Source of the DNA: Paraspadella gotoi
Taxonomy: Eukaryota > Animalia > Chaetognatha
DNA: 64,000 bases
Direction of reading: 5' to 3'
NCBI GenBank assembly: GCA_051294375.1
Contig: CM119267.1
Location: 19,216,773-19,280,772, forward strand
Position numbers and translations under genes: made by a program. Numbering within the stretch: the stretch's first letter is position 1; each line of letters opens with the position of its first letter. Positions 36,858 through 63,508 of the stretch are shown piece by piece. The notes beneath the pieces were generated by a model. That model ran no database searches, was not told the DNA's origin, and saw only the letters and a list, made by a program, of their open reading frames with translations.

Positions 36858-37477
36858 AGTTGTCCAACTAGTTCCATTTCCCGTCTGCATTGTCGTTCTC
36901 ATCTTGTCGGACCGGACGATCCAGATTCCGTTCCGGTCCCCTCTTGATCGTGTTCTGTAGAATCTATTTCTTGTTCTTTATTATATCTTTCTTTTCTTTT
37001 ATTTCTATATTTTTTTTTATTTCTTTCTCTTTTACTTTCTTTTTTCCTTGTTCTTTCCTTTTCGTTTTTTCTCTCTAACTTTTTCCTTTTTTTTTTAATT
37101 TTCTTTCTTTTTTTTTCCTTTCCTTTTTCTTTAGTGGTAATTTATTTGTTTCTTTTCTGTCGTTTTACTCAAACTTTTTGTTGACATAAAACAAAGTTTA
37201 CTTCACCTTTTTTACCCGTTTTTCGCTTCTTTTTTTTCCTTAATATTTTTTTCTCTTTTCTTTTTTTTTTCTTGTTGACGATCTCTCGCTTTTTCTGGTT
37301 GCCAACATTTTTTCCCTCGAAAACCAGTTTTTTTTTTTTCTATTGTTTTTTTTTTCTCAGTTCCTGTTTTCTTTTCCTCCCCTCGTTTTTCTATTTTTTA
37401 TTTTCATTCCGTTTCTTTCTTTTTTTTCCTCGCTCCTTTTTTCCTCGTCTTAATTCCGGGATTTTCCCTTCCGCCAG

Positions 37478-37588
37478 GAGGAACTGCTGGGCGTCATCAA
37501 CCGCAAACTGGGCTATCTTCGCGCCAGCGAAGAGAGGGTCAACGAGCAAATCAAGGCCAACGACGCTTACCATCAAAACATCGTTAGG
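37478..37588 (+). CDS. Shroom: Shroom ASD2 exon (EELLGVINRKLGYLRASEERVNEQIKANDAYHQNIVR)
   Basis: Aligns with the ASD2 ELI.SI.RKL..L......L...I.AN segment; canonical splice sites. Confidence 0.9.
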
Positions 37589-37958
37589 GTGAGTTGAAAA
37601 AAGGGAATGACAGTTTTCGTCGGTTGTCCGTTCGAGAGAAGGGCCTTTGGAAGAGGAAGCCTCGAAGCATTAAATTTGTTGCGTAATTAAATTCGTCCTT
37701 GGTCAACATTGGTTGTGACGATCTTTATTACGTGATTGGTTCACGCCTTTGCGAAAGATTGGACATTACCATCAGTCTGGTTAGAGTAGGGAAAGGTCCA
37801 TGGTAAGCTGTAAAGTGTATACTGTATACTGTGGCAATGATCGAGATAAGGTTCAAAGCAAGAATGAATGTATTCTTCAATAATAAGTAAAACGAGAGAA
37901 ACGGGAATAAAAGACTCTACGTCTGGTTTCACTAAGTGACCATTCGATATAACAATAC

Positions 37959-38033
<75 letters not shown>

Positions 38034-38232
38034 CTTGGTTGATACGGTTGTAACGGTTGCGTGAACAGTTCATTCGAGTTGCCACAATACTATATAATTG
38101 GGAGATATGTAACGGTTGACTGCCGGACTTTTTGACTTTTTGACCTTTTGAAGGTTTGACTGCTTGACTGCTGACTTTTTTTTTCCCCACAGAATGACTG
38201 GTTGATTAAAACGATTTGCTTTATTGGTCTTT

Positions 38233-38338
38233 CCGTCCCTCCCATGCCGTCCATCCCATGCCGTCCCTCCCATGCCTTCCCTCCCATGCCGTCCTTCCCA
38301 TGCCGTCCCTCCCATGCCTTCCCTCCCATGCCGTCCCC
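38233..38338. repeat. 14-bp minisatellite (ccgtccctcccatg) ~7.5 copies, intronic
   Basis: Directly visible repeat. Confidence 0.95.
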
Positions 38339-38775
38339 ACCGCCGTTATCATTTCTCGGACAAAAAAAAAGAGTTCATATCGTCCTTTCGAGAAATCTTA
38401 TGGATTTTTTTTTTCTTATCTTTCACTCGAGAGCCGAGGAGTCGAGACGAATCAAAGAAGTCGACCGGAAGCGAAAGAGATACCAGGCCACGCCCCATTT
38501 TTAGATTCGGCGCCATTCGACGCCGCTTTATGAATTTATAGACCGATGGTTCGGAATTGGTCATTCCTGTATTATGAGAGGTTTCGTAGCGATGCGCTTA
38601 ATCTGATGATCTTAACCCAAAATTTGGGCCAAATGCGTAATACCGAGCCTGACCAAACAGTCTGGAGTTCGCGGCCCGTTGATGACAGGGCCGAGATCCT
38701 TATTTCACTAGTTTTTCACAGTCTAAGGAGTTCTTTCAACAGTTCTGAGGCCCAACCCCCTCCAACTCCTTCCAG

Positions 38776-39021
38776 GATCTCGAAACGGCCTCCGTGAAAC
38801 CTCAAGAGGTGGAGCGCCTCCGCAACTTCGCCGACGACCTCAGCCGAGTCGTCCACACGATCGTCCTCCTCGCGGGATTCCTGGCCAAAGCCGAGAACGC
38901 CCGACTGAACTCCACCGGAGAGTCGGAGGGGGTGCTGCTGAAGAAACGCTGCGAGACGCTGCGGCGACAGCACGAGGACGCGTTGGAGCTCAAGGCCTCC
39001 ATCGACGGGCGGGGGAAGAAG
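38776..39021 (+). CDS. Shroom: Shroom ASD2 core exon (VKPQEVERLRNFADDLSRVVHTIVLLAGFLAKAENA...QHEDALELKASIDGRGKK)
   Basis: Matches the KP.E..K...FIGDLDKVV.LLLSLSGRLARVENA...QHEDAKELKENLDRR consensus; ccag| acceptor and AAG|GTGAGA donor. Confidence 0.92.
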
Positions 39022-39248
39022 GTGAGAACGGATGTGGTGAAAGGGGGGGAGGGGGTGGGTTTTTTAAATGGTGGTCAATGGGTTTTTGGAAATGAAGGTT
39101 ATGTCTACTCGAAATTTAAACTCGAATATCCTGTTAACGGACGTCACACGGAGCAACTCTATAAGTTACTTTGGAGTAGTCTGCAGTCTGTAGTCTGTCC
39201 GTCTATCTTTTTGTAACTCTTTCTATCTCTCTCTCTCTCTCTCTCCAG

Positions 39249-49009: not shown

Positions 49010-49165
49010 CTGCAGTCCACCTCTGACTTTTGACCTCCGGTTCTCGAGGCGAGATTTGTAGCAGAACTCAAGCAGAGCCATCACCATCGCCAGAGTGAGT
49101 CCCCCGATTAAGATGTAAAATACGCCGGCAACGTTACTCAGGGAGAGGGCATTCTGGGAGCCGTC
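49010..49165 (-). CDS. Gria: iGluR M4 exon ([46 protein letters not shown][VRGGLQ])
   Basis: AMPA-receptor signature [17 protein letters not shown]...EFCYKSR. Donors at 49028 (AAA|GTCAGA) and 49010 (CAG|GTCAGT). Confidence 0.95.
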
Positions 49166-50299: not shown

Positions 50300-50408
50300 C
50301 TGCATTTCCCCTTTGCCGCACTCAGATCGGTCATACCACCACTTTGTCTTTAATTTTGTTAGGTCACCCCCCTCCAGTAATAGGAGTACAGTGTATGACA
50401 AACAGTCC
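50300..50408 (-). CDS. Gria: Flip/flop-position cassette exon E (DCLSYTVLLLLEGGDLTKLKTKWWYDRSECGKGEMQ)
   Basis: ttgttag|G acceptor, CAG|GTATTT donor, 109 nt, phase 2-0, KWWYDRSEC motif. Confidence 0.9.
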
Positions 50409-51230: not shown

Positions 51231-51345
51231 CTTGGTACCATCGTTTTGGCCACACTCAGATCTATCATGCCACCATTTCTTCTTCAGATTATGCAATTCA
51301 CCATCTTCTTGCAATGATAATACAGCTAGCGAGATGCAACTTTTG
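51231..51345 (-). CDS. Gria: Flip/flop-position cassette exon D (SCISLAVLSLQEDGELHNLKKKWWHDRSECGQNDGTK)
   Basis: AAG|GTACTA donor. Phase-2 AG acceptors are possible at 51348, 51345 or 51339. Confidence 0.88.
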
Positions 51346-51447: not shown

Positions 51448-51556
51448 CTTGGCCTTGTCCTGGCCGCACTCGCTGCGGTCATGCCACCACTTTTTCTTGA
51501 GGCGGTGCAGCTGACCGTCCTCTTGAAGCGACAACACACTCAACGAAATGCACGAC
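51448..51556 (-). CDS. Gria: Flip/flop-position cassette exon C (SCISLSVLSLQEDGQLHRLKKKWWHDRSECGQDKAK)
   Basis: AAG|GTACGA donor, intact frame. The acceptor is uncertain: the nearest phase-2 AG gives a start at 51580. Confidence 0.82.
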
Positions 51557-53735
51557 TTCAACTCCTCCTCTCCTCCATTGCTTCCGTTTTAGAGAATCAA
51601 GCATAAAGAATCTGGTTCAATTCCTACTCTATAAGGTAGTATTTTTATCCGCTATTTAATGCCTATCTAACTTAGGATTGTGGTAAAAGCAGACTCATTT
51701 GCATGTATTTCAAAAAGAAAGAGAAAAAATAGGGTGTCATTCTTAAAAATAGACCTAAAGAAATTGAAATTTGTATCAGTCTGTTTATCCAGTAATCATA
51801 ACATAATAAACAACTTATGGAAATATTGGAAAATGTTGGCAAGAGTCTAGTTTTGTCTAGCTTCAGCTTAGCAGGGTAGCAGGCCAAAATCTTATCTTAT
51901 CTTTTGAAAATATCATCAAAGAGAAGCATTTTAATATATTTAATTCAAAGATTCTGCCCTTCAGCTTTTCAAAGGCTCTTTTCACCTGAAGAAGGAAAAA
52001 ATTATCAAGCATGGAAACTCTAAAATGAACAAAAACATTTGACATTAGGGTTGACAAAAAGAAAAAGAATAGAAAATTTAACATACGGTTAGAACAACAA
52101 ATCGTATTTCCTTTCTTTTTATTTAAAAGATTAAATTAAACCAGCTGTTGATTTAAAAAATATCTTTACAACGTAAAATAAAGCAGAGGAAAATAGAAAG
52201 CTACCTCACAAAACACTAGTTTTAAAGTTTGAAAATGAGAGACAAATAAAACCGATTTATTGTTTCAACCAATTTAAAACCAGTATTTTATTTCTTTTAA
52301 AATTATATACTTAAGTCATTAAAATTCTTCCATAAAAAATCATGCGATAATGTTACTAAGTCTCCAAGAGTTTTCATGTTTGATTTGTTCTTTTTGCAAT
52401 AGTCAGGGATAAAGTGGTTTTGTTTTAAAGCCAAAGAATTGAAGACACATTTAAAGAAGTAAGGTAAATGAAAAAAATACTAGAAAAGAACAGCCCAAAA
52501 ACACATTGAAGAAGAGGTTCATGCAAATTTCCTAACATAAATAGGTCCGATATTGTATTTGGTGTTTTTCAACCAAACTGGGCGAATATATTAACTTTCT
52601 TTCCAGTTGGAATTGAGAAAAATATTTTAACGACACTGAAGTAATAATCCAAGCAAATTTTGTCAGGTAACCCAAATGAAACTAACTATTCTAAGTTGAA
52701 AAATTATTAACACTATCTGAAGGAAATACAATGGTCTTAATATTTACACTCTTTTTAAACACTCGAGGTTTTTCAATTTTAGAAGAAGGTACAATAATCA
52801 CGTCACGGACATCTTCTCGAGGTCAGAGGCGTTTTTCACGCAAAAATATTTTTTTCCGAAAGCCAAAAAGTCACTTTGGTGCATATTTAGTATGTTACCT
52901 CTGGTATTCGACACAAAAAGAAACGTATATCATGCTTAAAATATCATGCAATCCATAAACCAATGTTGTATCATGGTTCTACTGATTCGGATAGGAAGGA
53001 GACATGCATTAAGTCTCCAAAGGGAGACAAAGTCTCAATTTTCCGACAATAGCATCAAAAGAAGGAATGCTTCATTGAAGATAGAAACTTGCCAACTGTT
53101 TGAACAAAATAATTCTTTTAAAACAACGAAGGTCACTAAAAAGTTGCTTTAGTTCATTTCATTTCCTTGCTTCTGCTGTCTTTTATCAAGTGGATCCATG
53201 AAATTCAAAAAGTAATATATGTTAGTTGATGTGTTCTAGGAAAATCAAAGTGCTTGGTTAGTCTTTGGTGAAGGAGTGAGTATGGTGTGATGAACTGAAA
53301 CCTCGCTTAGTGGATATTGAAATATGAAATAGTTTTATTTTATTACTTTTGGTTGAAAGTTTAGTAGTAAAAGTGATGAGAATTTGGTTATATTGCAATG
53401 TTTTTTTTCTTATATGATAAAAATTAATACAAGCTTTTCAAGCAGCAATTGAGTTTTGTATTTCGTTCATTAGTAAGCATTTTGTATCATTCGGAATTTT
53501 AGTAATGTAGTATCAATGTTTTTTTTTTCAATCTCTTTATTATTCAGGAGGCAAACAATATCTTTTGTTAGTAAGCATTGCTTAGCCATTCTATTTAAAC
53601 ATTGACATATGAATTTCAAACTTATGAGTCGGAATTTCTCATTCGATTAATGAGATCGTACCAACAAATCTATGGCAAGATCTATGAACGAAATCCTTTT
53701 TTTTTTTCAAAAAAGTTGTTCTGAAGGTTCAATAC

Positions 53736-53850
53736 CTTTGAGCCTTTTTCTCCTTGTCCACACTCAGATCGGTCATACCACCATTTCGTTTTTAGCTTTT
53801 GACAGTCGCCACTTTCTAGCAGTTCTAGAGTAGTTAGAGACAGGCACGTC
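53736..53850 (-). CDS. Gria: Flip/flop-position cassette exon B (TCLSLTTLELLESGDCQKLKTKWWYDRSECGQGEKGSK)
   Basis: tttatag|G acceptor, AAG|GTATTG donor, 115 nt (the same length as vertebrate flip/flop exons), phase 2-0. Confidence 0.92.
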
Positions 53851-54657: not shown

Positions 54658-54765
54658 TTTGGCGGATTCCTGTCCGCACTCGCTCCGGTCACGCCACCAC
54701 TTTTTTTAACCTAAAACGCTTCCCCGTCCTCTTGTAGCTTAAGAATCTGGAGTGATATGCAACTC
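54658..54765 (-). CDS. Gria: Flip/flop-position cassette exon A (SCISLQILKLQEDGEAF[R]LK[K]KWWRDRSECGQESAK), frameshifted as assembled
   Basis: ccaag|G acceptor, AAA|GTAAGA donor. 108 nt rather than 3n+1; the disruption lies in the T4/A7 homopolymers (GCGTTTTAGGTTAAAAAAAGTGG). Confidence 0.75.
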
Positions 54766-56275: not shown

Positions 56276-56452
<177 letters not shown>

Positions 56453-56867
56453 TTATAATTTATTCAATGAAATGATTAATTTGTACTAATTTTATATTCC
56501 TCAGCTCCTTATATTTTGATGCCAAGTGCGTACAATGATTTTTCCGTCTTATACATAAGAATAACAGGGTGAATATTTTTCCAACAGCATTTATGAGAAA
56601 GCAAAGCACTCCGGAGAATCTTGATGAACGTTTGCTGGGCTAAAATAATGGAGGGAATTTGAGGCCCTAAGCTACCACAGCTTGACAACTGTCCAGTTTA
56701 TTTATATTATTATTATTTATCGAATAAAAGGATAATTTCTGATATTGATAATTTCACATACTGCTAAACTACGTAATTGTTCAAATCTTCGCAACAACAA
56801 AATCAAAATCCACCACCACATCGGCATCGCCTTCGACAGCAAGCATTCCTCCCAAACCAAAACTGAC

Positions 56868-56999
56868 CGAGAAGAAAGGCATATTTTCCCTTGGACCTCC
56901 GCACACGTTCAACGCCTTCGTCGGTAGACTGTACAAAAACGTTCGGCTGGGCGTGCTCATGAAGGCCCACATGCGTTCGTAGACGGCGATCTTCGACGT
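56868..56999 (-). CDS. Gria: iGluR S2 exon ([42 protein letters not shown]), 1-nt frameshift near 56952
   Basis: The two halves sit in adjacent frames (ORFs 56781..56972 and 56803..57087); canonical splice sites. Confidence 0.9.
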
Positions 57000-57340: not shown

Positions 57341-57444
57341 CTTGAAGAATTCCTTGGTTGAGCCTGAGTCTAAGGATCCGTAACGGATTTCAGTCTGTTT
57401 GGCCAGATCGTCTGCCCCTTCGATGGGCGTCAACATTCTCTCGA
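57341..57444 (-). CDS. Gria: iGluR S2 start exon ([35 protein letters not shown])
   Basis: AMPA-like [20 protein letters not shown]; ctcag| acceptor and AAG|GTGAGA donor. Confidence 0.96.
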
Positions 57445-57599: not shown

Positions 57600-58206
<607 letters not shown>

Positions 58207-59495
58207 TTAAAAATCCCCTCGGTCGGTTCACATCAATGGTATCGCTTAATGAATATTTTTTCCTTATGAAAAAAAAAAATTTTTTTTCTTCGATAAAAAA
58301 AATAAAGGGAAAGATAATTGAATGGAAGGAATTAACGATTGTCTTATGCAAGCAACAAGCAAGTGAAAATATCTTTCGTATAGAAAGTAATCATATAAAA
58401 AGATGGAAAAAAATGGACGGATATACGGAACGACGGAAGATCGAACTTCCAACGTCGTTTTTGTTTTTTTTTATTTTAATTATTTCAAAGTTTAACTTTT
58501 TGGTTAAATCGAGAGAGTTTTTATTTTTTTCTTTTTAGGGAGGGAATTTTATGTATATGTATATTAAAATTTTTCTTCTTTTAAAATATTAAAACTATTT
58601 CGAAAACCGAACATGCTACCACAAATTTCTTTTTATCGAATTGACTACGAAATTCATGCCTTAAAAATGGTTCTATAGAGGAGAATAAAATATAAAATTA
58701 TATTTAATTATAAAAAATAATTTTCTATAATTTTCAGCCATGGTTGTGACGTTATCTTTTATTTTTAGGGATATAATATAAAGTTAGAATAAGGGAGACG
58801 ATTTGTTAACGACGCACTGGACTTCACCAAAGAGCCTTTTTTCGTTTAATCGTTTTTGTTTTGTCTAATTGTAGTATAACGGTACTACTTTTTTTTTGGA
58901 GGTGCCTAAATTTCATTACCATTACCACAACGACAAGAAATTCGTCATGCTTTTTCTATAAAACACAAATGTGCCGTGAAATACACTGTGCTACAGTTCT
59001 ATATTCATCGTGAAATGTAATTACGATGCGATCTTGGGCTTTAAAATGTTTACAATTTGAGGACTGTTTTTTTTTCTAAAAAAAAACCCTGATTTTTCTA
59101 AAAATAAATAATGATTCTGAATTAAACAGCTTTAGACAAAAGTAATACTTAAAAAAAATGTATTGCTGAGAATTGCGTGCAAGATTCATGCTGCTGTCCT
59201 CGTTTGAATGTAATTTCTTCCATTTGCTCTAATAATACTGTATTACAAAAACTTTTAAATTTTAAAGTAATACAAGTAAAGAAAGAGGCGAAATCGCCTG
59301 GCATAATAAAATAAATCAATTCCGTTTTATAACAAATAGTAAAACACCTCAACGAAGCACGAGCCGATATGTTATTGTGTGTAATGATAATAAGCCAACT
59401 GTCATGCTCAAAATACGAACTTTTATTTTAAAAGCTCACTCAAAAAAAGAAAAAAAAAACACTTTATGTGCTCTCTCGTTTCTGCGTGGATCACG

Positions 59496-59548
<53 letters not shown>

Positions 59549-59575
59549 GAAAGAGAAAGAGAGAAGAAAACGTAC

Positions 59576-59939
59576 CGGGGCGAGAGTTCGACCCCTTGTC
59601 GCATGAGAGCCCCAAAGTTAAACCAAAAACTGTTGAAAATAGTAAAGTCGTTGGTGGGTCTGGGCGGGCCCCGTTTGACGGTCTTTTTTTTCTTCCTTCC
59701 TAGGGTTCCGGGGCGATCGTCGGCCCCGGGATCAAATCCTGGGTCGCCCCTACGGACGTCGAAGAGTCGGGGGTTGACCGAGGCGTCGGCGGGTCTCAGG
59801 GGAACGCCACGATAGCGCAACTCTGGTTGAGGTTCCCCGCGGAAACCATAGCTGTATTTGTGCTGCGGAGAATTAGGCGCGGAATGCGTGGCGGCTGTCT
59901 GCGGCGGCGGCGGCGGCAGAGGTAATTCATCGAAACTCG
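59576..59939 (-). CDS. Gria: Alternative M2 pore-loop exon with genomic Arg at the Q/R site (...[41 protein letters not shown])
   Basis: Paralogous to the 62000-62160 exon, open frame, phase-2 donor CCCCG|GTACGT matches the M3 exon. The 5' boundary is uncertain. Confidence 0.8.
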
Positions 59940-61999
59940 CTGCAGCCAAAAACCCAGGGTTTTTTGGGGTTGTTGTTGTTTTCGAGGTCGGAGGTTAAGA
60001 AATTCACATGGCTTGAAATTTTTTTTTCATATTTATTTTCTGTGAATTTAACCAAGGTAGAAAAACATAAAATTTACTTTTGTGCCAAAAAAGATGATAC
60101 TATTAGACTTTAAAAAAAAATATAATGTTAAATAGGCTTATCAATAATATAAAAACAATCTTCATGAATACACTTAGGCCATGGAATTTCTCAACCCCCG
60201 CCCCCTGTCCGTCTCTCCCTCCCCCATAAATTTTCGTACGTTCCACATTTTGACGGGATACAGTTTTGGAAGGGAACAAAGGTTGGTTAACGGGACTGTT
60301 TCGACTGTGAATGTTAGCTGAAAGGTTCGAGGCCCTCTGTCCTCTTTATTGTAATATGCATGAGGGAAATAAAAAAGAGAGAAAACATACATGAAAAAGG
60401 TTGGAATCGGAAAAAGAATTCATCAAATATGGTGCGTGTCTTCTTCTTTGTTAATTTTTAAAAAAGCAAAGATTTACGAAGCGAGGATGGCTTATTTATA
60501 TATTTTATTTGCGTCTTGACTAGGCATAAACTAGACTTTTTTTTACAGTATTTTATTTATAGAAAATCAAAAAGCCAGATAAACATTTTTTTCTTATTTA
60601 GGTTGACGTTTACACTTAAAGTCACTTCCATGGCTGAAACGAAAAAGCGATTACTGAATCTAATGATGAATTCTTTGTCGGAAAAAAGTCACTACTGAAA
60701 AACCACGAGTAAGGCGCGGGCCGGTTAAAATCAACCCAAAAAAAAAGTCAACATAAACAATCGGCCAAAGAAAAGAGCAACAACAAAAAATCCGTTGACA
60801 GAAAGCAGAAAAAAAAATCAAAAGAAAAGCAATGGCGTTTGTCATCGCATGCAGTCGATGAAGCGAAAGTTCTAACGTCAAACCCCAATTTTTTGTTTTG
60901 GTCACACGTTGCCATGACTACCTATATGTTTGCAATCATCTCGTACTACTCTAAACTTATTATATAAAAAAATATTCAAATTTATAATTTTAAAATGTTT
61001 TGATTTTAGTTTTTCAGTAGGTTTTAGCCAGATCATCAAAAACATTTTATTTTTTGATATCATTTTAAGCCATGAAAGTGACTATAAAATATTTATTTTG
61101 ACATATTTTTTTATGACGAAACTTTTATTTTCAATTCTTATTCTCGATGGTTGAAATTTTTCTCCCACCAAAGGTGCAGTAAGATTTAACTAGCCTAGGA
61201 TATATCGAGTATGATTATTTCTAACAAAAATGCTAAATTGCTTACATAAGGATGTGCTGTGCCGAATTTCGTATAGTAAATTTCGTATAGAAAGGCAACT
61301 GTGCCATGCTCATAAGGCATAGAGGCATAGAGGCTTCTGTGCCATGCTGGTAAAGTGCGCGCTCCCGATATCGTTGGGGCCAATTAACGATTATATCTAA
61401 AAGTTTACTCTCAGATTTATAGAGTAATACAAAAATTTATAACAATTTCTTTTTTTATTCGAGCGCTTGCTGTTTCACCAAATAATCGCCTAGGTAAGCA
61501 ATATCTCGTATACTTGATAATTAACATTTTTTAAATATTATATAATACCAAAAAATTTTAAAAAACGGATCATTTTGTAATCGTTTTGCTAAGTATTGAT
61601 AAAAAGTTATCTCTTTAAATGACCTTACCCCTCCCCCCATCCTTTTTTTTTAATTTTCGTTACAATAAAAATATTTTGATTATATATTATCTCTTTTTGT
61701 TTTTCCTTCTCACTTCATATTTTTTTTAACTCTCTCAAATCTCAATGTTGCAACCTTTTTTTAAAATTAAATTTTTAATAGTTCTGAAACGTTTTCTCAA
61801 TTCTAAAAAAGTATCTTAAATATATCTTCACCTCTTAACATCGTCTAAAAACATAATCAGATCAAGCTTTTTAAAAAAAATATCAAGCGCTCATAGTTAA
61901 ACATAGTATCCGCAATATGAAGCGCAATTGTCGCCGGCGCCTTGATCGAGGATAAACAAACAAAGCTCTCGGAGTCCGGGGTTGCCAATGGCGACTGAC

Positions 62000-62160
62000 C
62001 TGGGCGAGATGTCCGTGCCTTGTTGCATGAAGGCTCCCAACGAGAACCAGAAGCTGTTGAAGATTGTGAAGTCGTTGGTGACGCTGGGGCCGTCGATCGT
62101 CTCCTCCACCCGCCATTCGTAGGGAGAGAATCGACTCACCAGAAACAGCACCACCGACAC
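62000..62160 (-). CDS. Gria: iGluR M1-end/M2 exon, Q form ([54 protein letters not shown])
   Basis: AMPA-type M2 signature; ttcag| acceptor, CCCAG|GTCAGT donor. Confidence 0.97.
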
Positions 62161-62714
62161 CTGAAGGTCACGGTTTTCGTTTCCTTGTTTATTATTTGCT
62201 TTCCTTGTTTCGTTGTCTGTTTTACGACAAATCGCGGAATTTCTTTTTTCCAAAAAAACAAAAAAATTAAATCCCAGTGGTGTCTTTGATTTAATCCACC
62301 GACCAATTTTCGTAATACCGCGGGGATTGAACGCGTGACCTTAAGTTAAGCTTTTGAAAAGGGAAAAAAACAATATCATTTCTATTTTTTCGGGTCGTCA
62401 GTGAAAAAATTTTAAGAGTTTTTACTTTTCTTTTTCACGATGTTTTTTTTTGTTTTTTTTTCTTTTTTTTTTTTAATAAAAAAGCAATTTTAAGTCTTTT
62501 AAGCCCCGACCCCAGCTGGCACACGCGGAAGCATTTTTGTCTTGGAAAAAATTGTTAGCCTCAATATACATCCGATCGACAATAACTTGAAATATAGATA
62601 TTGTTTTTGTCCTTGAACCCACAAATTTCGCCCCCCCCTCTCTATCCTCAAACTCTCTCTCACTCTCTCCTCTCATCTTCTCTCTCTCTCTCTCTCTCCT
62701 CTCTCCTCTCTCTC

Positions 62715-62746
<32 letters not shown>

Positions 62747-63160
62747 CAACGCGAAAGAAAAAGTGTCTGCAAGATCGATGCTTTTTTCCTCGTCTTCTCA
62801 TTCTCTCTCCTTTTTCGAGTTTTTTTTTTTCGCGGGAAAGGGTTTTTCGCCCACCATCCCAACAAAACTACGAATAACAACCAAAATTTTAAGAAAAAAA
62901 ATAGCCTCGAAAATTTAAAAAAAAAAAAACAACCAAACTAATCAACCAAACACCATAAAATTAACAAACCCTCGGCCCAATGAATCGACTAACACAAACA
63001 ATCACACGATCTCGCATACAAACCAACAAACCAGTCAGCCTACCAAGGAGCCGACCGGAACCCAACAAACGAGTTAGCAATTAATCAATAAACAAACCAA
63101 CCATTTATTAACCAAGCGAACCCCCGAACCAATCAAAGAAATCAACATACCCATCAATTA

Positions 63161-63508
<348 letters not shown>

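Follow-up and report, generated by a model that had tools for sequence, protein, structure and literature searches.

The two systems that tune AMPA-type glutamate receptors in vertebrates are ascribed to the vertebrates themselves. Q/R editing of the pore arose within that group (PMC13520880), and the duplication that produced the flip and flop exons, each of 115 nucleotides (nt) (PMC8257547), is dated to the earliest vertebrates (PMC4494069, PMC13520880). Pore arginines encoded in the genome are known from paralogous AMPA genes, namely Q2R in the acoel receptor Hof-98014323 and Q1R in some fishes (PMC13520880), and duplicated, alternatively spliced exons occur in another ligand-gated channel, the insect nicotinic acetylcholine receptor alpha6 (PMC1919356). 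According to a 2026 survey, alternative splicing in invertebrate AMPA receptors still awaits detailed study (PMC13520880). The gene described here lies in a 64,000-nt stretch of the genome of the chaetognath Paraspadella gotoi (assembly GCA_051294375.1, contig CM119267.1, positions 19,216,773 to 19,280,772), which is called the window. It is an AMPA-like receptor gene with two pore segments, one carrying glutamine (the Q exon) and the other arginine (the R exon) at the Q/R site. Comparisons of its sequence suggest, with a probability of about 0.6, that this single gene yields two types of subunit by alternative splicing and that the R subunit is functional.

The receptor and its two pore segments

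The minus strand of the window, from about 63.4 kb to 48 kb, contains the 3' half of an ionotropic glutamate receptor. The S1-M1, Q and M3 exons, three S2 exons and the M4 exon were recovered in order by tblastn with four homologs as queries. The resulting M1-M2-M3-S2-M4 layout, with SYTANLAAF and a GAFMQQG loop in M2, is that of the AMPA class, and the Pfam family Lig_chan is matched at 5e-13. The top structure matches of the Q exon are GluA2, and the 60 Protein Data Bank matches listed for it bear the name GluA or an unnumbered 'Glutamate receptor', with kainate in none of the names. In a tree of 21 rows the nearest rows are AMPA-type (0.63-0.70), and the sole kainate row, which is the one outgroup, is on a branch of 1.77. 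By these measures the receptor is closer to GluA than to kainate receptors. The window protein sits among the rows of AMPA type and belongs to no starred set and to none of the supported groups of vertebrates, annelids and arthropods; its placement by lineage is limited by the make-up of the tree, which is without molluscs, nematodes and gnathiferans.

The first-pass annotation of this DNA had proposed tandem pore exons with Q and R codons, a phase-2 exit common to both, and a single M3 exon. Peptides, codons (CAA and CGA) and donors of the two segments all check out at the coordinates then given, on the minus strand (Table 1). The Q exon ends at CAG/GTCAGT and the R exon at CCG/GTACGT, and both fit the start of M3 at 58060. 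The copies form one direct repeat of 91 nt with 74% identity, 2424 nt apart, and in this sense are tandem homologous exons. Many synonymous changes with an intact frame had also been claimed, and they are there: the 26 codons differ at 20 bases, 13 of them third positions, and of the 17 degenerate codons with an unchanged residue, 9 have a silent change. There are approximately 10.6 silent and 9.4 replacement changes, corresponding to proportions of 0.68 (pS) and 0.15 (pN). The ratio of replacement to silent substitution rates (dN/dS) of the R copy against the Q copy is 0.09 (Fisher p 5e-5), a figure with some bias because the segment was picked for its similarity. An allelic or assembly duplicate is ruled out by the pS of 0.68 and by the occurrence of the R type in a relative. 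As judged from this alignment, the resemblance is neither due to chance nor that of an allelic duplicate. The R exon stems from an ancient duplication of part of the Q exon, with silent sites now near saturation.

The R copy has arginine at Q1 and retains the acidic residue (E) at +4, and six other M2 changes accompany the arginine. Its motif GALMRQG.EL.P presumably resembles that of kainate GluK2. The functional role of Q1 and of the acidic +4 site is documented in PMC6307864.

The duplication is a partial one. The likeness between the copies ends at PRPTNDF in one and PSVTNDF in the other, and no copy of a 16-residue peptide of the Q exon is present in the R exon, either in the window or in the relative. 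The R exon is 287-364 nt long, compared to 161 nt for the Q exon, and the two are not interchangeable as wholes. The earlier description of 'duplicated exons', meaning two interchangeable copies, is thus not borne out: about 91 nt are in common, the end of M1 is missing, and the loop is new. The phases agree at the 3' ends, and at the 5' ends they agree only if an internal donor of the Q exon is joined to a phase-0 acceptor of the R exon. The pair fails the classic test for whole-exon mutual exclusion, yet probably works like a mutually exclusive pair.

Conservation of the R exon

The reading frame of the R exon is open over 120 codons upstream of its donor. The G+C fraction of this frame is 0.59; immediately 5' of 59940 it is 0.33, a sharp step, and the introns on either side have 0.31-0.32. 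A protein from a relative, P0001, agrees with the R exon at each of the 26 residues of M2 and in the SPR/YV context of the donor, and is open through the loop upstream; 75 of 141 residues are identical to the open frame of the R exon in BLASTP. The two proteins share VKRGP.RP ahead of M2 and blocks such as THSAP..PQH.YSYGF.G, and all indels between them are in frame. The loop has diverged by roughly half, with M2 and the donor context identical, a pattern that indicates selection at the protein level. Judged by its sequence features, the R segment is supported as maintained coding sequence.

P0001 was the only match among 301 candidates, and in a representative search, which returned five matches, it alone matched the loop. 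Two metagenome scans for relatives of the R exon gave 595 and 148 pattern matches, none of them confirmed, and a search of the ESM Atlas with the R exon gave no match at 0.9 or more. Of what had been suggested as a check, the R exon is conserved in this one relative, and the low dN/dS is that between the two copies of the window.

Transcripts and splicing of the R exon

Transcripts were sought in run X1, which is RNA by guess and contained 0.18 of the query words; no run on record as RNA was among the matches listed. Aligned on 57930-62640, it gave seven records and one joint. This joint is the expected junction from 62000 to 58060: a contig connects the Q exon to M3, leaving out a 3939-nt interval that is bounded by GT and AG and contains the R exon. 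The contig matches the Q exon and M3 with zero differing letters, runs on at its loose end into the S2 exon that follows, and has no edited base in the Q codon. The Q form is real. The other expected junction, from 59576 to 58060, is in none of the seven records, which is no proof of absence because contigs drop rare forms. A 167-nt unspliced piece of X1 lies inside the R exon, and there is a 283-nt intronic piece too, so the former is no sign of exonic expression.

Replacing the whole Q exon would cut M1 in half, so that the R exon needs either an internal donor in the Q exon or an unseen exon. With the Q exon skipped, the best 19-residue hydropathy of M1 is 0.84-1.26 instead of 2.43, whereas use of an internal donor at 62140 leaves it at 2.43. 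This donor, CTG/GTGAGT, agrees with the consensus at 8 of 9 positions and so equals the real donor at the end of the Q exon, whereas none of 18 further GT/GC sites listed there scores above 6. The chance of such a spelling, given the codon use of the gene, is about 0.025, a post hoc figure. Entry to the R exon through this donor appears most likely.

The R mRNA would then leave the Q exon early at 62140, keeping the hydrophobic core of M1, enter the R exon at the phase-0 acceptor at 59898 or 59862, and exit at 59576. The choice of the 5' splice site would make the Q and R pores mutually exclusive. The R subunit would exchange the conserved VSRFSPYEW loop of 20 amino acids (aa) for a basic, proline-rich cytoplasmic loop of 69-81 aa, and trafficking or assembly would likely be altered together with ion selectivity.

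Other ways of completing M1 were considered. HKYSYGFRGE as a diverged form of an 11-residue peptide failed a shuffle test (p 0.84 in the window, 0.997 in P0001), and so did a hidden copy of the M1 end between the Q and R exons (p 0.85). A candidate exon at 62585-62525, leading from phase 0 to phase 1, does not resemble M1, and its donor is weak. A match to the M1 end in the upstream intron had p 0.04 in one of two tests. Among the longest 25 of the 162 inverted repeats in 57900-63300, all of low complexity, there is no docking/selector pair.

Function of the R pore

From vertebrate and Lingula data, R subunits in heteromers are predicted to give linear current-voltage relations and low Ca2+ flux; less polyamine block is predicted as well. 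A Ca2+-poor R subunit is the best prediction because of mutational data from other receptors. When Q1R is engineered into the AMPA receptor of a protostome, Lingula, or into one acoel heteromer, rectification and the Ca2+ effect disappear; the substitution also works in rat and, less fully, in Saccoglossus (PMC13520880). In the receptor KaiR1D, Q604R leads to loss of the philanthotoxin block (bioRxiv 10.1101/2025.10.06.680643). The first-pass annotation had suggested that Ca2+-permeable and Ca2+-impermeable subunits may be obtained by splicing. The maintained R copy, the Q-M3 junction and the Lingula data speak for this; simple replacement of the Q exon by the R exon, as envisaged then, does not stand.

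Alternative explanations

The 5' junction of the R exon is the weak point of the two-subunit reading, and several observations there and elsewhere weigh against it. The step in G+C content and P0001, which is known as protein only, favor entry at 59939, a phase-1 acceptor, and the best GT donor that the Q exon could supply in that phase scores 3/9. THSAP, conserved in P0001, is located upstream of 59862, arguing against that acceptor. Furthermore, no Q, K or E stands just before TTHSAP in P0001, so that an AG at the position of 59898 is absent there. VSRFSPxEW, which would be lost in the R form, is present in all 120 of the sequences P0002-P0121, retrieved with a segment bearing this motif as query, and the residues N, F and L of the R-exon M2 occur in none of these 120 homologs at those columns. 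The only relative with an R exon is P0001, an ENA protein from a 1008-nt contig; the one spliced contig uses Q and skips R; and Q1R failed to bring back linearity in one of the acoel backgrounds (PMC13520880).

Some of these points would be explained if the R exon were translated into a non-conducting or regulatory product, such as a dominant-negative or trafficking partner, instead of a Ca2+-impermeable subunit. In that case the transcript would reach the R exon at the 59939 site in phase 1, coming either from a hidden exon further upstream or from an internal promoter; otherwise its product would have a broken M1. The G+C step falls exactly at 59940, P0001 permits, as far as its protein tells, a phase-1 acceptor at the same place, the indels of the assembly nearby could conceal an exon, and the Q exon has no good phase-1 donor; the three M2 residues not seen in homologs also agree with a pore that does not conduct. 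Nevertheless, the full pore helix and selectivity loop are conserved in P0001, as a working pore predicts, the R loop contains no in-frame ATG, the test for a hidden M1-end copy between the Q and R exons was negative, and a strong, well-placed phase-0 donor is present. We regard this explanation as unlikely.

The R segment could instead be a left-over partial duplicate, a pseudo-exon that is never spliced into mRNA. This would agree with its being skipped by the X1 contig, with the missing half of the copied exon, and with the fact that no acceptor in a usable phase is clearly common to the window and P0001. A dN/dS of 0.09, the long open frame with exon-like G+C content, and an M2 and donor context that remain identical next to a half-diverged loop with in-frame indels only are, however, not the marks of a decaying copy, which makes a pseudo-exon improbable. 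Least probable is that the R isoform is a functional subunit selected for its new cytoplasmic loop or for assembly or conductance, with Ca2+ selectivity unswitched: the loop (69-94 aa compared to 20) has conserved blocks, M2 has its six other changes, and Q1R was insufficient in the one acoel receptor, but the same substitution was effective, at least partly, in the four other AMPA backgrounds named above and its counterpart abolished the philanthotoxin block in KaiR1D.

The flip/flop-like exon array

Five homologous exons that end in KWW.DRSECG (54765-50300, minus strand) are located between the last S2 exon and M4. Over 31 residues, 18-28 are identical between copies; copy B pairs with E (24) and C with D (28). 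Copies B, D and E have the properties of flip/flop-type exons, being about 115 nt long, situated between S2 and M4, and bounded by phases 2 and 0. In vertebrates the duplicated exon is likewise at the end of S2 before M4, and its length of 115 nt is that of copies B and D. The window gene differs in having five copies instead of two and in being a non-vertebrate gene. The array is apparently convergent with vertebrate flip/flop, and expanded.

Gene structure and assembly

Table 1. Exons, splice sites and related features of the receptor gene, in window coordinates
Feature	Position	Strand	Remarks
S1 end and first half of M1 (from a 12-residue to a 13-residue peptide)	63185..63379	-	tblastn pieces in three frames; frameshifted in assembly
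Q exon: second half of M1, loop, M2	62000..62160	-	Q codon CAA 62025-62023; phase 0 in, phase 2 out
Candidate internal phase-0 donor CTG/GTGAGT after VSVVLFL	62134..62142	-	last exon base 62140; consensus match 8/9; likely entry to R isoform
R exon: GC-rich open frame, new 69-94 aa loop, M2	59576..59939	-	R codon CGA 59601-59599; phase-2 donor; conserved in P0001
R exon candidate acceptors	59939 (phase 1), 59898 and 59862 (phase 0)	-	
Single M3 exon (from a 14-residue to an 11-residue peptide)	57966..58060	-	tblastn; X1 contig joint and loose end to next exon
S2 exon a (VERMLTP...KEFFK)	57341..57444	-	tblastn; start matches loose end of X1 contig
S2 exon b (SKIAVYERM...GKYAFLL)	56866..56999, ends approximate	-	tblastn; one frameshift in assembly
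S2 exon c	56316..56430	-	tblastn, splice-site reading; phase-2 donor just ahead of flip/flop-like array
Flip/flop-like copy A	54658..54765	-	tblastn; frameshifted in assembly
Flip/flop-like copy B	53736..53850	-	115 nt; clean phase 2/0 sites
Flip/flop-like copy C	51448..51580	-	open frame and donor; only weak in-phase acceptor (51580)
Flip/flop-like copy D	51231..51345	-	115 nt; clean phase 2/0 sites
Flip/flop-like copy E	50300..50408	-	109 nt; clean phase 2/0 sites
Single M4 exon	49010..49165	-	tblastn; 96% identical in two ENA proteins, P0139 and P0140

The S1-M1 exon and S2 exon b are frameshifted in the assembly by single-base indels in otherwise conserved sequence, and the join of the S1-M1 exon to the Q exon is one G short. 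A 3219-nt contig runs through the gene, which suggests that the frameshifts are assembly errors. These indels and the 25-N gaps in other places point to gaps that were filled from long reads and left uncorrected; gap filling with long reads is described in the chaetognath genome paper (PMC12460157). The end of the M4 exon has two possible donors, at 49028 and 49010 (after RSK or after VRGGLQ), and VRGGLQ is retained in P0139 and P0140. The neighboring gene, at 37454-39213 on the plus strand, encodes an Apx/Shroom ASD2 domain (Pfam 1.5e-15; ESM Atlas) and is convergent with the 3' end of the receptor gene.

Comparison with other systems

A literature search by titles and abstract openings, with subscription papers and bioRxiv supplements beyond its reach, found no Q/R pore exons in an AMPA gene and no flip/flop-like arrays outside vertebrates. 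The motifs of the window are absent from 13 supplements of PMC13520880, and the accessible text of PMC5225553 and PMC3167634 contains nothing on invertebrate Q/R exons. The remark that such a gene had not been described thus holds for the AMPA class as far as this search goes, but tandem R and Q pore copies exist in a crustacean kainate receptor. Pore splice forms of Drosophila CG11155 were reportedly treated by Li et al. in 2016.

The chances are about even that both tuning systems of vertebrates evolved a second time, through duplicated exons alone, in one invertebrate AMPA gene, which would select a Ca2+-impermeable R pore with its own cytoplasmic loop by splicing and choose among three to five flip/flop-like exons. 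If so, a single locus would provide 6-10 combinatorial subunits, and the AMPA pore arginine would have been reached in three separate ways, by editing, by gene duplication and by splicing, which would be evidence for repeated selection of switchable Ca2+ permeability. Splicing, like editing, would give cell-by-cell control, but would make the pore residue change together with a new intracellular loop.

The crustacean case, XP_047737935.1 of Hyalella azteca, is a pancrustacean kainate receptor for which one gene has two neighboring pore copies, as here. Its gene model (P0126 / P0122) strings together two M1-M2 copies, with LLRQG and then LMQQG. Each of these is a full M1-to-M2 duplicate and R comes first, whereas the window gene is of the AMPA class, has Q first, and has an R exon without M1 and with a novel loop. 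The origin of the R/Q pair in the window is inferred to be independent of the Hyalella pair. Tandem segments occur in other gene models as well. The AMPA-like glutamate receptor 1-like of Artemia franciscana (P0123 / P0127) has tandem post-M1/M2 segments, LLKAG, with lysine at the Q/R position, and then MQQG; the second of these is without an M1 end of its own, a possible parallel to the window locus. Two kainate-like models, P0124 (Dryococelus australis) and P0125 (Megaselia), each have two tandem Q-type pore segments, and that of Priapulus caudatus (P0057) has two tandem M4 segments, possibly duplicated exons.

ADAR2 editing of vertebrate GluA2, and also of GluK1 and GluK2, resembles the present system in the residue concerned (Q1), in the change from Q to R, and in giving two pore forms per gene. 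Here, however, R is encoded in a second exon, and six other M2 residues and the M1-M2 loop change with it. ADAR editing of the Q/R site involves a single genomic Q codon and an intronic complementary sequence, a combination that the window does not have: the best duplex of the Q site with its intron has a score of -22.4 compared to a shuffled mean of -22.6, and 18 of 40 shuffles are as low. The proposal of a 'convergent replacement for RNA editing' was overstated, because editing was born in vertebrates (PMC13520880); the R exon would be an independent solution.

MRQG is found in 19 of the 120 retrieved homologs, a count in which genomic and edited arginines are not distinguished per sequence. 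In the acoel receptor Hof-98014323 the hard-wired arginine gives linear, Ca2+-insensitive currents (PMC13520880). Such paralogous AMPA genes are products of whole-gene duplication, whereas the Q and R forms of the window gene would share one amino-terminal domain, one ligand-binding domain and one promoter.
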